Shown piece after piece: positions 6,927 through 44,471 of a stretch of DNA of 64,000 nucleotides; the first letter of the stretch is position 1, and every line of letters starts with the position of its first letter. The position numbers and the translations under genes were made by a program. The notes under the pieces were generated by a model, which had not been told where the DNA came from, did no database searches, and saw nothing but the letters and a program-made list of their open reading frames with translations. The stretch lies in sequence record NC_054902.1. The stretch is one strand, 5' to 3'. This stretch comes from Enterobacteria phage Aplg8.

Positions 6927-7121
6927 TTATTTGAATTGTGCAATTCTTTTCTCTAGACACTCAGCATAAGATTTCATTGAGATGAACTGTGAAAGCAGCA
7001 GTTCTTGCTCAACTGCACTAACCGTTAGAAACTTTGTGCTTTCTAAAAATTTGCTCAGTGCATTAATTTTGAGCATTAATTGATCGTATTCTTCTTTTAC
7101 TCGTGCTTGATAACCTAACAT
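6927..7121 (-). CDS. hypothetical protein
   Basis: 64-aa ORF between denB and rIIB, flanked by UUCG hairpins. Confidence 0.5.
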   Translation of the reverse strand: MLGYQARVKEEYDQLMLKINALSKFLESTKFLTVSAVEQELLLSQFISMKSYAECLEKRIAQFK

Positions 7122-39740: not shown

Positions 39741-40457
39741 ATGAATTATAAACTAATTTATGAAAAGTTAATCTCTAATGCTAAATCTCGAAAACTTGAT
39801 TGCTATACTGAATCTCATCACATTATACCACGCTGTTTAAATGGCAGCGATGATGCCTCAAACTTAGTAGATTTAACACCAGAAGAGCACTATGTAGCTC
39901 ATCAACTTTTAGTAAAAATTTATCCTTCTGAACCAAAATTAGTCTATGCTGCTAACATGATGACAGTTTCCACGAAATACGCTAAACGTAACAATAAAAC
40001 TTTCGGTTGGATTCGTCGTAAACTCTGGGAAATAGAAAAGAATAAAGAATTCTCCCAGGAGACACGAAAGAAAATGTCTGATGCAGTAGCTAATAAAGCA
40101 AGACTAACTTGTCCACATTGCGGTAAGTCCGGATTAAGCGGGAATATGAATCGATGGCATTTTGATAACTGCCCGAATCACCCTAATCCTAAAGTTAGAC
40201 CACCGATGTCTAAAGAACACAGAAATAATATCTCAAACGGGCTTAAAGCAATCATTCTTGAAGAAACATCCTGCGAATTCTGCGGAATGATAGGCAAGAA
40301 ATGCGTTATCGCAGCGCATAGAAATTTCTGCAAGAAAAATCCAAATGGACGCAAGAAAACTGAAAAGACTGGTACTTGCGTCCATTGTGGTAAAGTTACC
40401 ACTTTCGGAAATTTATCAAGATGGCATAATGATAACTGTAAATATAAACCTAGCTAA
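39741..40457 (+). mobile_element. free-standing HNH homing endonuclease gene (Mob-like), convergent with gene 46
   Basis: 238 aa; HNH motif ESHHIIPRCLNGSDDASNLVDLTPEEHYVAHQ; three C-terminal zinc-ribbon repeats CxxC...RWHxDNC; only long plus-strand ORF among minus-strand early genes. Confidence 0.8.
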
Positions 40458-42138
40458 TCTTAGCTAAACTAAATCTACCAACTTTTTCCATTTGAATATG
40501 CTGACCATATTCTTGTGGGTCATGGTCTTTATGCGAAATTATGAAGAAGTTGGTATCCTTCAAACCATCTAAAATTTTAGCTACATTTTTAATACCTTCA
40601 GCATCAAATGCACCGTCATACACTTCATCAAGAAATAAACAACTTATTTTAACACCTGAAACTTTTTCAGCAATATCACGCCAAGTAAATAAAAGAGCAA
40701 TATCAATTCGTGCTTTTTCACCTTGACTGAATGAAGCATAACTAAAATCTTCACGACCACGGGATTTAATTGTCTCATTAAATTCTTCATCTAATGTAAA
40801 CACATAATCCGCTTCCATTATTTTAAGATAATGGTTAATCTGCTTATTAAATAATGGAATGTACTTTTTAATAATAGCACCTTTAATACCAGAATCTTTG
40901 AGCATATCAGTCAAAATTCCTCGGTGGTATTTTTCCATTACTAAATTAGTTTTTGTCTTAACAATTTTATCAAGTTCTTCTTGAAGCAGTGCTATTTCAT
41001 CAGCATGGTCAATAAACTCAGAAGATGCTTTTTCTATAGCTGCTTTAACTTTTTTAGCTTTATCTACCGTCGTGATTAGAGATTGCTTTTTATTGCGAAT
41101 ATCATTTGCCAACGACTGCTGAGTTTTAATATTATCTCGGTATTCATCAACAAGAACTTTTAAATTATCACGGTGTGTTGAAAGCTGTTCAAACGAATGC
41201 GTACATTCAGAAACTTTATCTTTAATTTTAGAAACAACTTTATCACCGGAACTTAATTGTGACAAGCAGGTTGGACATAATCCACCTTCGTGATACATAT
41301 TAATGACTTTATTATACGAGTCAATTTTTGATTTAATTAAAACTGCTTCTTGACCGATTTTATTAAATGCATCAGTCGGGTCTTCATCCAAAACAATATT
41401 AACTAATCTTTCATTAGCTTCTTCTATTTCCGATTTTAGCGTTCTAGCTTCTTTTGCCAAATCATCATACATATTTTGTAGACGAGTAAGGTTGTCACCC
41501 GTTAATTTTTTCTGGCGTTCAACGTTATCATTATATATTTTAATTTGTTGGATAATACTATCTTTTTTAACATCAAGCACTTGGTTTTGTGAATTTAATT
41601 CACGTATTAGTGCTTTATTAAGCTTATCCATTTCAGCTAATGTTCCTACCTCAAGCAGGTCTTCCACAAGCTTTCTTCGCGCAGGGGTCGACAAACCCAT
41701 GAAAGGGGTATACCCTGCTGTACCAAGGACAACAATCTGCTTGAAACTGGCATATGACATTCCGATAAGCTGTTCAAATTCTGCTTGGAAATCTTTACTG
41801 CTGGCAGATTCATTAAGACGTGTACCGTTAACGGTGATTTCGAAAACGTTTGGTTTTTGTCCTCTTTTGATATAGTACTTTTTCTCATCATATTCCATCC
41901 ACAATTCAACTAAAAGTTCTTTCTTATTTGTGCTGTTTATTAATTGACCTTTCTTTACATCACGAAATGGCTTGCCAAAAAGCCCAAATGTGATGGCTTC
42001 TAACATAGTAGACTTACCACCGCCATTTCGTCCAGTAATAAGAGTTTTTTGAACCTTATCTAATTGAATGTCAACTCCATTTTGACCAACTGACATTATA
42101 TTTTTATATTTTACTCTATTAAGTTTAAATGATTTCAT
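40450..42138 (-). CDS. 46: gp46 recombination nuclease subunit (Rad50/SbcC-like ATPase)
   Basis: 562 aa; Walker A GRNGGGKST, coiled-coil with CPTC zinc hook, signature/Walker B near C-terminus. Confidence 0.92.
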   Translation of the reverse strand: MKSFKLNRVKYKNIMSVGQNGVDIQLDKVQKTLITGRNGGGKSTMLEAITFGLFGKPFRDVKKGQLINSTNKKELLVELWMEYDEKKYYIKRGQKPNVFEITVNGTRLNESASSKDFQAEFEQLIGMSYASFKQIVVLGTAGYTPFMGLSTPARRKLVEDLLEVGTLAEMDKLNKALIRELNSQNQVLDVKKDSIIQQIKIYNDNVERQKKLTGDNLTRLQNMYDDLAKEARTLKSEIEEANERLVNIVLDEDPTDAFNKIGQEAVLIKSKIDSYNKVINMYHEGGLCPTCLSQLSSGDKVVSKIKDKVSECTHSFEQLSTHRDNLKVLVDEYRDNIKTQQSLANDIRNKKQSLITTVDKAKKVKAAIEKASSEFIDHADEIALLQEELDKIVKTKTNLVMEKYHRGILTDMLKDSGIKGAIIKKYIPLFNKQINHYLKIMEADYVFTLDEEFNETIKSRGREDFSYASFSQGEKARIDIALLFTWRDIAEKVSGVKISCLFLDEVYDGAFDAEGIKNVAKILDGLKDTNFFIISHKDHDPQEYGQHIQMEKVGRFSLAKIS

Positions 42139-42153
42139 TTTGTATCCAATTGT

Positions 42154-43008
42154 TCACAATGAAGAAAATTCTTTAACTAAAGCCTGTAATGAAGCCTCTA
42201 TTGGATATCCATTCTTAACTAACATTTTCCTAAACATTACATGTTTAGGACGATTATATGATATCCACAATTCATACAATTTATCTTTATTATCCCAATG
42301 ATAGCCTTTTCGTCGAGATGCTATATGAGCTTTTCTAATCTCCGGATTTTTCCAACTAGCAGCTACTGAATTTGATATAGCTATTTTATATTCAGGTTTT
42401 GATAAAGCAGCACGAACAGCCTTTTGGTGTTTAATTTTATTTTCTTCGTTATTAAACCATTCCCTTGAAGCCATTGAAATTTTTTGTTTTGTTTTAAAAT
42501 TATTTAATCTTTCTTTATTATCTTTCCTATTTTTTGCTACTGAAAAATATTTTAATGCCCTTTCTCTAGCAGCATTTCTATTTTGCGGATTTGAATAATA
42601 CTGTTGAAGCCTTTTTGATATTGTGTCACTTACATCTTGTTTTATAAAACTATATTCAGCAGCTATTAAATCAACTTCGGCTAAAGATAAATTTTTATAT
42701 GTTTTTCCTGACATCATTCTATTTAAAGCATTTAGCATTTTTCCATTTTTACCTTTTGCTAATAAGAAGTGTGCTTTAAAATGATTAAAATGACTTAAAT
42801 TAACTAAATTCCATGTAGATTTTAAATATTCAGGAAATATTGATTTAGGAAGCACGTGGTGTGCTTCCGTTTTACCTGGAGTTTTAACAGTTGAATTCAC
42901 AGAAATAAAATTAATGTAAGACTTGGCGTCTTCTTCACTCAACGCTAATTTTTCAACTAATTCCTTTATTAAAAATTCATCATTAATGTCAAGTTTAAAA
43001 TTCTTCAC
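42154..43008 (-). mobile_element. HNH homing endonuclease gene with NUMOD-like repeats
   Basis: 284 aa; HNH-like TEAHHVLPKS...NLVNLSHFNHFKAH; C-terminal repeated basic helix motifs; inserted between 46 and 47. Confidence 0.7.
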
Positions 43009-43220
43009 AAAAGATTCCTTTTAATGTATCTTTTAGACCATTCTATCATATCATCATAATCTAAAAAGTATTCATCAAATTCAGCCATGCAAACAACGCC
43101 TTGTGCTGTTTTTGATGTAATATAAATTATTCCAACATATCTAGAATCTTCTTCGGTATAATCAATGTTTGCTATGAATTCATCATTAATGTCAAATGTC
43201 GAAAACTTCACAGTATGCAT
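43005..43220 (-). CDS. hypothetical protein (46.1/46.2 position)
   Basis: 71 aa from MHTVKFSTFDINDEF; first codons duplicated at start of the adjacent HNH gene. Confidence 0.45.
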   Translation of the reverse strand: MHTVKFSTFDINDEFIANIDYTEEDSRYVGIIYITSKTAQGVVCMAEFDEYFLDYDDMIEWSKRYIKRNLL

Positions 43221-43455: not shown

Positions 43456-44471
43456 TGTGTTGCCTCTACATATAACTGATTTGCATATTGAATAAGTGCT
43501 TCACGATCAGAATCAGTGATGTCTGGAATTGCATTAATGTATTCTTCCATTAACGTCTGAAGAGATTGAACTTCAACTTCTTCACTGTCATCTGACTCGA
43601 CAGAGTTATCAATCTTTGACACAACTCGTAATGAATGCACAACTTTTTCTAGTTCAGATTCGAACTTCGTCAGATTTTTGTCTACCTCAGTTACTATAAC
43701 ACGTACTGATAGATTTGTAAAATCTTTATAGTCAATTTTTCCTTTAAATGGATAATGAATTCTACGATGCCAGGTAGTGTTGTTTGGAATAAATTCCATT
43801 CGTTCTGTTTTTGTATCAAACATCCAGAACCCGCGAGGGTCATTCTCGTCACCTGCAGTTAGTGTCCATGGTGTCCCAATATATCTGACGTTAGCAGCCT
43901 CAGAGATAGTATGGAAGTGACCAGACCACACTTCTTTATAAGTCTTAAGGAAATCAGGTTCAAGACCGTGAGATTTCATTCCTTTATAAAAATAAAATCC
44001 ATTCAGTTCCCAGTGACCAACACAAAAAGAAGCAGAAGAAGTTTTTATGTGCTCGAGAATTTCACCAGTATTTTCTTCACACATCCAAGGAATTAAATCA
44101 ATTAAACATCCGTCAAAATCTACTGTAGTAGGCTTATCATATACTTTAACATTAGGATATTTAGCCAAAAGCTCAGTAGAGGCATTTGGAGTTAAAGTAT
44201 TTTTAAAGTGCATATCATGGTTTCCTACAACAGTATGCAGGGTAATACCAGCATCATCAAGCATTTGAACTATTTCACGAGCGAACTCCATAGTTTTATG
44301 TGTGATTGCTTTTCGCACATCAAAAATATCACCATATTGAATCCAGGTAGTAATTCCATTTTTCTTAGAATATTCTATTGCTTGTTTAATTCCATCTAAC
44401 TGAATGGATTGAACCCACTCATCATCGGCTTTAACGCCTAAATGCCAATCACCTAAATTTAAAATTTTCAT
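43452..44471 (-). CDS. 47: gp47 recombination nuclease subunit (Mre11/SbcD-like)
   Basis: 339 aa (T4 gp47 length); calcineurin-like phosphoesterase motifs (GDWH, GNHD). Confidence 0.92.
   Translation of the reverse strand: MKILNLGDWHLGVKADDEWVQSIQLDGIKQAIEYSKKNGITTWIQYGDIFDVRKAITHKTMEFAREIVQMLDDAGITLHTVVGNHDMHFKNTLTPNASTELLAKYPNVKVYDKPTTVDFDGCLIDLIPWMCEENTGEILEHIKTSSASFCVGHWELNGFYFYKGMKSHGLEPDFLKTYKEVWSGHFHTISEAANVRYIGTPWTLTAGDENDPRGFWMFDTKTERMEFIPNNTTWHRRIHYPFKGKIDYKDFTNLSVRVIVTEVDKNLTKFESELEKVVHSLRVVSKIDNSVESDDSEEVEVQSLQTLMEEYINAIPDITDSDREALIQYANQLYVEATQ

Follow-up and report, generated by a model that had tools for sequence, protein, structure and literature searches.

What is the gene that separates gene 46.1 from gene 46 in some T-even phages, how did it come to lie there, and does it act upon the essential recombination gene that follows it? 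The question is raised by a 64,000-nucleotide (nt) stretch of Enterobacteria phage Aplg8 (sequence record NC_054902.1), the whole of which is termed the window here and which represents a segment of a Tequatrovirus genome. The minus strand of the window carries, in this order, genes 55, a-gt, 47, 46.2 and 46.1, an open reading frame (ORF) at 42154..43008, and genes 46, 45.2, rpbA, 45 and 44. In the ORF listing of the window this reading frame has a GTG start and 284 amino acids (aa), and it lies on the same strand as 47, 46.2, 46.1 and 46. With 284 codons and a family profile match at E=8e-45, it is not a chance feature. The reading favored here, at a probability of roughly 70%, is that it is a homing endonuclease gene of the Mob family that inserted into the first codons of gene 46 and that works, as MobE of phage T4 does, on relatives without it.

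A first-pass annotation of the window, made from the sequence alone, had picked out this minus-strand ORF and quoted two strings as its HNH core. Both are present exactly as quoted, TEAHHVLPKS at residues 47-56 and NLVNLSHFNHFKAH at residues 67-80. The annotation had also placed gene 46 between two endonuclease genes, and endonuclease ORFs do lie on either side of it, at 39741..40457 (+) and 42154..43008 (-). Its expectation that T4 lacks the ORF was borne out: in T4 the 46.1 stop codon and the gene 46 GTG overlap directly, and the window has in addition a clean insertion of 870 base pairs (bp). The synteny comparison across T-even genomes that it had proposed likewise shows an 870-bp element that is present or absent at one site, with T4 among the genomes without the ORF.

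The endonuclease gene and its main parts are as follows.

42154..43008, minus strand: homing endonuclease ORF of the MobD-like HNH family, 284 aa, identified by PHROG 655, PHROG 12434, matches in phage records and the ratio of non-synonymous to synonymous polymorphism (pN/pS)
42769..42867, minus strand: HNH catalytic motif, residues 48-80 (EAHHVLPKS...WNLVNLSHFNHFKAH), from invariant columns, the AlphaFold2 model and a weak McrA alignment
42310..42615, minus strand: basic alpha-helical repeat region, residues 132-233, a presumed DNA-binding array, from repeated turns and predicted helices

Anatomy of the insertion

The net insert of 870 bp is clean, and its junctions are identical in six other carriers. 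The uninterrupted T4 junction reads ...AAAAGGAATCTTTTGTGAAGAATTTTAAACTT/AATAGAG..., in which gene 46 starts at the GTG that overlaps the 46.1 TGA, a start annotated in T4 record M10160 ('gtg start codon'). In the window, the left junction sequence continues directly into the endonuclease ORF, so that endonuclease codons 1-6 are those of gene 46 and the GTG that overlaps the 46.1 stop is now that of the endonuclease. At the 3ʹ end of the element, the TGA of the ORF is followed by a 15-nt spacer and then by ATGAAATCATTTAAACTT/AATAGAG. This right copy of the gene 46 start is identical to the left copy at 14 of 18 positions, including all of the last 9 nt, and is unchanged in all six other carriers examined. 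Since the first 18 nt of gene 46 are duplicated, the endonuclease uses the original AAGGA Shine-Dalgarno sequence and GTG of gene 46. The element has taken over the translation start of gene 46, which in carriers restarts at a new ATG supplied by the element, behind a weaker GGA Shine-Dalgarno sequence.

42991..43008, minus strand: left copy, the first 18 nt of gene 46 (GTGAAGAATTTTAAACTT), used as endonuclease codons 1-6, with a GTGA overlap with 46.1, from the T4/T2 alignment
42974..42992, minus strand: 19 nt (TTGACATTAATGATGAATT) identical to 46.1 codons 6-13, from repeat analysis
42139..42153, minus strand: 15-nt spacer brought by the insert, with a weak GGA Shine-Dalgarno sequence for the new gene 46 start
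42121..42138, minus strand: right copy of the gene 46 start, the functional gene 46 start in carriers, from the alignment
40450..42138, minus strand: gene 46 (Rad50/SbcC-like), which lies inside the bracket and is the likely target
43005..43211, minus strand: gene 46.1 (DUF5487), whose stop is coupled with the start of the endonuclease gene, from Pfam DUF5487 (E=4e-49) and the PP01 annotation

Endonuclease codons 7-13 (DINDEFL) are encoded by a 19-nt run that matches codons 6-13 of 46.1 exactly, 203 nt upstream, and the 5ʹ end of the endonuclease gene is thus a gene-46/46.1 chimera. The exact 19-nt direct repeat (42974-42992 and 43177-43195) sits within a wider match of 45 nt at 78% (42965-43009 versus 43168-43212). 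This chimeric 5ʹ end suggests past homeologous recombination at the site, either as an earlier 46.1::endonuclease fusion or as a homeologous crossover. The endonuclease and 46.1 ORFs both begin with GTGAAG and both encode DINDEF.

Family, motif and structure

In a PHROGs profile search, residues 1-282 of the protein matched PHROG 655 ('homing endonuclease'; E=7.8e-45) and residues 14-132 matched PHROG 12434 ('HNH endonuclease'; E=4e-15). A tblastn search of 50,697 phage records recovered the annotated mobD genes of the T4-type phages RB10, RB59 and VR26 at approximately 30% identity over 83% of the query, together with many 'Mob-like' genes. The likeness to the plus-strand endonuclease that the first-pass annotation had remarked upon holds at the level of the family, both proteins belonging to PHROG 655.

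Alignments of 50-58 homologues show that E48, H50, H51, P54, H76 and H80 are invariant and that N67 is at least 90% conserved. The resulting spacing, HH-15-N-8-H-3-H (H50-H51, N67, H76 and H80), is that of a canonical HNH, or His-Me finger, motif. AlphaFold2 places the catalytic residues on a strand (47-51), a second strand (68-72) and a helix (73-84), with a predicted local distance difference test (pLDDT) score of 82 for the whole protein and 90 for residues 1-130. Because of the invariant motif, the PHROG families and these relatives, the protein is classed from its sequence as a free-standing HNH homing endonuclease of the T4 Mob family, MobD-like in character. The first-pass description as an HNH-type homing endonuclease therefore stands on the motif, the PHROG families and the relatives, and finds no backing in the Pfam HNH and NUMOD models. 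Among the relatives themselves, Pfam HNH (PF01844) is matched by 10 of 50 and NUMOD3 by 29 of 50, and some match the Pfam I-HmuI NUMOD-like model. The family profile, searched against Protein Data Bank (PDB) sequences, gave two weak matches, both at the expected positions, one to the I-TevI DNA-binding domain (E=0.03) and one in which the HNH motif of McrA lines up with the HH..N..H..H of the family (E=0.57). A phmmer search of the protein against PDB sequences returned only noise, and an NCBIfam scan gave no match.

The C-terminal half had been described as repeated basic helix motifs of the NUMOD type, and only the first part of that description is retained. Residues ~132-233 are rich in lysine and arginine and form 4-5 helix units around a W/Y-x-N-P-E/Q-x-R/K turn at residues 140, 187, 204 and 221. 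In the AlphaFold2 model, helices span residues 109-233, mostly at pLDDT >85, followed by a low-confidence C-terminal three-helix region. The NUMOD1 and NUMOD3 Pfam models found nothing at E<=1 in the protein, and an ad hoc NUMOD3 hidden Markov model built from relatives scored 3.3 bits, within the range of shuffled sequences (maximum 5.5). The modeled C-terminal half is presumed to be a DNA-binding region, a basic helical repeat distinct from NUMOD.

Distribution, selection and mobility

The endonuclease ORF is found at 95-100% nt identity in 69-70 public phage records, all of them Tequatrovirus and including T6 (intact), T2 (frameshifted), PP01, RB51, RB68, CM8 and PhiZZ23. Approximately 430 other Tequatrovirus records, every T4 record among them, do not have the gene. 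RefSeq records commonly name it 'homing endonuclease', one T2 record 'mob-like', and the homologue in Salmonella phage Melville is annotated 'MobD-like'. A single 'other HNH' endonuclease gene is counted for T2 in Table 5 of Petrov et al. 2010 (PMC2993671). A literature search found no paper on this particular endonuclease gene. The gene is already known from public annotation in T2, T6 and dozens of relatives, so its novelty is low and it is not a new discovery.

The gene is intact in 57 of 70 copies and disrupted in 13. All seven T2 records have a 2-nt deletion after which the frame is lost past residue 203, the RB51, RB68 and Ac3 copies have a 1-nt deletion that takes effect past residue 177, and the MLP2 and G2133 copies are also disrupted. 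Five intact copies differ at 15 synonymous and 3 non-synonymous sites (pN/pS 0.04-0.08), which shows that the intact ORF is under purifying selection.

At this fixed site, with identical junctions, the gene is polymorphic for presence and absence (~70 records with it and ~430 without), and flanking haplotypes are found in all combinations with its presence and absence. Among six carriers, mean divergence is 1.05% in the endonuclease gene, 3.75% in the left flank and 2.5% in the right flank. These patterns fit a functional protein whose gene spread among backgrounds more recently than the flanks diverged. General recombination among T-even phages could contribute to the same pattern of diversity.

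The same lineage in three genera

The nearest relatives outside Tequatrovirus are in Melville (Gelderlandvirus) and Escherichia phage G2469 (Mosigvirus), at 42-43% identity by protein alignment and 44-45% by tblastn. Both homologues adjoin the 5ʹ side of gene 46 and overlap its start. The gene is present in 5 of 16 Gelderlandvirus records and 10 of ~155 Mosigvirus records. In Mosigvirus it replaces 46.1, the same slot being filled by a DUF5487 gene in HX01. In Gelderlandvirus the slot may be empty, as in STML-198, where 47 and 46 overlap directly with neither 46.1 nor the endonuclease gene between them; it may hold a 46.1-like ORF (S16) or the endonuclease gene (Melville). The 46.1 (DUF5487) and endonuclease genes are alternative occupants of one slot, which marks the 47-46 junction as a recurrent insertion hot spot. 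IMG/VR was also searched for related loci, with the aligned sequences of this lineage from the three genera as query, and no relative was recovered.

Slot upstream of gene 46 in the comparison loci: L016, 845-1084; L014, 1074-1196; L015, 990; L005, 3444-4304; L004, 3489-4331

A substitution patch linked to the gene

Carriers and non-carriers of each genus are nearly identical from approximately nt 70-120 of gene 46 onward and differ sharply, at 13-23 positions, in its first 60 nt. In the window, the difference is concentrated in the following segment.

42073..42121, minus strand: endonuclease-linked gene 46 patch, nt 18-66, gp46 residues ~6-22, a candidate target or immunity region, from substitution counts

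Compared with the common endonuclease-free allele, this patch has 13 substitutions within 60 nt, over a background of 0-2 per 30 nt. Counts in successive 30-nt bins along gene 46, carrier versus non-carrier, were as follows.

Window versus Ozark: 11, 4, 4, 1, 0, 1, 0, 1
Melville versus STML-198: 8, 15, 1, 1, 0, 0, 0, 0
G2469 versus HX01: 2, 9, 4, 4, 0, 0, 1, 1

At the protein level, gp46 of non-carriers in all three genera reads Y-Q-NIMSVG-G-(N/S)-P and that of carriers Y-(K/S)-NIMSVG-Q-x-x. Nucleotide differences fixed across the three genera fall in codons 12, 18 and 19. Within the phage collection, 360 records have the common non-carrier patch and 143 the carrier, or T4-type, patch. With a probe made of the endonuclease 3ʹ end plus the patch, the carrier-type patch was found in 70 of 70 carriers and the endonuclease gene in none of the 360 common-allele records. 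One idea, that Ozark, RB6 and FL33 have a rare resistant variant in their divergent 60-nt allele, was rejected, as this allele is that of the majority (360 records).

T4 and ~68 other records have the carrier-type patch, with two single-nucleotide polymorphisms (SNPs) of difference, and no endonuclease gene. In ELT1, ERS-1, BCH953P2 and CJY920, the 46.1/46 junction is empty and is accompanied by two SNPs (GGAGTT) otherwise seen in carriers. The sequence of these four phages is an exact match to the predicted product of a precise deletion between the direct repeats.

When IMG/VR was scanned for the carrier-type patch as a DNA pattern, five loci were returned, none with an endonuclease gene upstream. 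On two of the contigs (L018 and L022), which belong to a different T4-like genus, 47 and 46 overlap (GTGA) with no endonuclease gene between them; gp46 starts near oriented positions 7035 and 3449, respectively, and begins VKTFKLNRVKYKNIMSVGQAA, with the carrier-type residues K12 and Q19.

Mosaic segments are also seen in other parts of genes 46 and 47. The 5ʹ part of gene 47 (~44230-44430) contains one with 13-16 substitutions per 50 nt relative to T4, shared by the window, PP01, BMB16, PE37, PST, Ozark and FL33 and not by T2, N2, BCPEco001 or RB6; its occurrence is independent of the endonuclease gene. A similar segment lies at nt ~360-480 of gene 46 in BMB16 and FL33.

Proposed mechanism and alternatives

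If the enzyme works as MobE does, it would be made in small amounts through translational coupling. In a co-infecting relative without the endonuclease gene, the helical C-terminal array of the enzyme would bind the conserved beginning of gene 46, and the N-terminal HNH domain would nick or cut the DNA there. Repair by recombination, with the carrier genome as template, would then bring in the endonuclease gene and, along with it, the neighboring ~66 nt of gene 46. The carrier would be protected from self-cleavage by its substitutions (codons 12 and 18-21), by the split junction or by both. Copies of the gene would later decay (13/70 disrupted) or be removed by deletion between the 9-18-nt direct repeats, and such losses would leave empty sites that still have the carrier-type patch, for example that of T4. 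The T4 patch suggests that the empty site of this phage is that of a former carrier. A more specific version is tentative and falls a little short of even odds: the mobile unit would comprise the gene plus a recoded, cleavage-immune stretch of the first ~66 nt of gene 46, it would have persisted across at least three genera (Tequatrovirus, Mosigvirus and Gelderlandvirus), and T4 would be a former carrier that kept the patch after deletion between the 9-18-nt repeats.

Several observations weigh against the homing interpretation or its link to the patch. The Pfam check proposed by the first-pass annotation failed, neither HNH nor NUMOD1/3 reaching significance in the protein, and for HNH (PF01844 and related models) there was no match at E<=1. 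Three structure searches returned helical-repeat proteins only and no HNH structure. The carrier-type patch occurs without the gene in ~73 Tequatrovirus records, T4 included, and two of the IMG/VR patch loci represent another genus that has the patch and not the gene, which weakens the association. Moreover, the association is expected from physical linkage alone, since the patch abuts the insertion, and genes 46 and 47 have mosaic patches at other places too.

One alternative keeps the family and the homing and reverses the target. The susceptible sequence would be the T4-type empty site, recognized through the carrier-type patch, the intact 46.1/46 junction or both, and the common 'YQNIMSVGG' allele (360 records) would be resistant. 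The gene occurs only beside the T4-type patch, as expected of a recognized sequence; the insertion splits GTGAAGAATTTTAAACTT/AATAGAG and alters gene 46 at 4 of its first 9 nt, a classic route to self-immunity; and the gene is rare (14%) despite the abundance of a supposedly susceptible common allele. However, all endonuclease-free Gelderlandvirus and Mosigvirus genomes examined have the common-type patch, so carriers in those genera must have gained the patch together with the gene, and the precedent of MobE puts the immunity polymorphisms in the carrier. This reversal is unlikely on balance, though it carries more weight than either of the remaining alternatives. A less probable explanation is that the gene no longer encodes a mobile nuclease and is either a relic in decay or domesticated as a DNA-binding protein, passed on by inheritance and reshuffled through the high rate of T-even recombination, with the patch an ordinary linked mosaic segment. 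Frameshifts or truncations in 13 of 70 copies, including all T2 records and RB51/RB68, would fit such a relic, as would the fold searches that recovered no HNH structure and the similar substitution clusters elsewhere in genes 46 and 47. Yet the intact copies are under strong purifying selection with invariant catalytic residues, the endonuclease gene is less diverse than its flanks, and the same lineage, site and kind of patch recur in three genera.

A further alternative, slightly less probable again, concerns the role of the enzyme: its main effect would be to benefit the phage by interference competition or marker exclusion, cutting the essential gene 46 of relatives, with homing as a by-product. 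Gene 46 is required for recombination-dependent replication in T4. T4 homing endonucleases and the PhiPA3 intron endonuclease are reported, in the introduction of PMC2790892 and in abstracts, to mediate exclusion or competition. No sequence feature, however, separates a role in phage benefit from plain homing, and the frequent decay of the gene speaks against a strong benefit. MobE-like nicking at the start of gene 46, in phages that lack the endonuclease gene, remains the most likely mode of action.

Transcription signals

A sigma-70 promoter scan around the endonuclease gene gave scores no better than those of shuffled sequence, leaving no convincing promoter of its own. The T4 late promoter (TATAAATA) is absent from the coding strand, and the sole match resembling a MotA box lies inside the endonuclease ORF. 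This sequence, in the 3ʹ part of the ORF at 42383-42412 (-), consists of TGCTTTA, a 12-14-nt spacer and TATAAA/TAAAAT, and the frameshifting 2-nt deletion of T2 falls within its spacer. Although only a pattern match, it might serve gene 46 as a middle promoter, in the manner described for other T4 endonuclease insertions. A perfect 8-bp inverted repeat (GGAAGCAC / GTGCTTCC) at 42848-42868 coincides exactly with the codons of the catalytic E-A-H-H-V-L-P stretch. The terminator scan picked it up on the other strand, and it may either form a hairpin in the mRNA or reflect chance codon usage.

The second endonuclease gene

The other side of the bracket is occupied by an independent gene.

39741..40457, plus strand: second HNH endonuclease gene of Mob type, independent of the first and located at the 3ʹ end of gene 46, from PHROG 655 (E=1e-68)

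It is present in 57 records and overlaps gene 46 at the 3ʹ end of the latter. It assorts independently of the gene at 42154..43008: the plus-strand gene alone is found in RB32, FL08 and Ozark, that at 42154..43008 alone in PP01 and T2, and both in G28, N2 and the window, whereas T4 has neither. The last ~200 nt of gene 46 (40530-40730) are 66-85% identical to T4, PP01 and T2, the rest of the gene being 97-100% identical, and gp46 has 562 aa in the window versus 560 aa in T4. From its sequence, this 3ʹ tract looks like a co-converted foreign segment. G2469 has a counterpart of the plus-strand endonuclease, 58% identical in aa sequence, at the same place and thus the same two-gene bracket. The body of gene 46 is ~70-83% nt identical between the window and G2469, no higher than the neighboring genes.

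Significance and comparison with known systems

Regarded as a gene, the element adds little, being one more Mob-type homing endonuclease already present in T2, T6, PP01 and others. The details newly described here, namely the start-codon takeover, the occurrence of one lineage at one site in each of three genera and the patch of gene 46 linked to the endonuclease gene, are of modest interest. The locus shows how an endonuclease gene can insert into a translationally overlapping gene pair by way of a duplicated downstream start. It also offers a natural experiment in which one site exists in four states (common empty, T4-type empty, intact gene and decayed gene). Its value lies in a pattern replicated in three genera and in a sharply bounded substitution patch within an essential recombination gene, part of which, in T4, may be the footprint of a lost selfish element. 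To our knowledge, MobE is the only Mob-family enzyme whose target has been mapped, and the patch gives a concrete prediction of target and immunity site for this family: if the proposed mobile unit is correct, the site that a Mob enzyme recognizes or cleaves is marked by gene 46 codons 12 and 18-21, which can be tested.

The arrangement resembles the homing endonuclease gene islands (HEG-islands) of Barth et al. 2023 (PMC10448857) in that two endonuclease genes that differ in specificity lie on either side of an essential gene, here gene 46. It is unlike them in that the cargo is not unusually conserved between genera; for this reason, and because the two endonuclease genes assort independently, it is described as a bracket rather than as a demonstrably co-mobilized island. 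In I-HmuI, the intron-encoded HNH nickase of SPO1, the HNH domain comes first and a long DNA-binding part built from small modules follows, a two-part plan that the protein shares. I-HmuI, however, is encoded within an intron and has modules of the NUMOD type, whereas the gene 46 endonuclease is free-standing with no detectable NUMOD3, and the two have no significant sequence or fold match.

Among named T4 proteins, MobD, whose gene is flanked by nrdC.11 and mobD.1 (PMC2988022), is the closest relative, with ~30% identity across 83% of the length. At this level of identity, the gene 46 endonuclease is a separate lineage with its own insertion site. The most instructive parallel is T4 MobE, a promoter-less cassette that overlaps the upstream gene nrdA and whose product nicks nt 122-126 of the downstream gene nrdB in phages without mobE (PMC2790892). 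Genomes with mobE are polymorphic at the nrdB nick site and show co-conversion of the flanks (PMC2790892). MobE differs in locus and in target, nrdB rather than gene 46; the gene 46 endonuclease, known here from its sequence, is twice as long, has a helical repeat array and, unlike MobE, duplicates and takes over the downstream start codon. The two nonetheless share a PHROG-level family, a cassette orientation that follows that of their neighbors and a start that overlaps the end of the upstream gene, and the candidate target in gene 46, like the MobE target, would lie in the 5ʹ region of the downstream essential gene.

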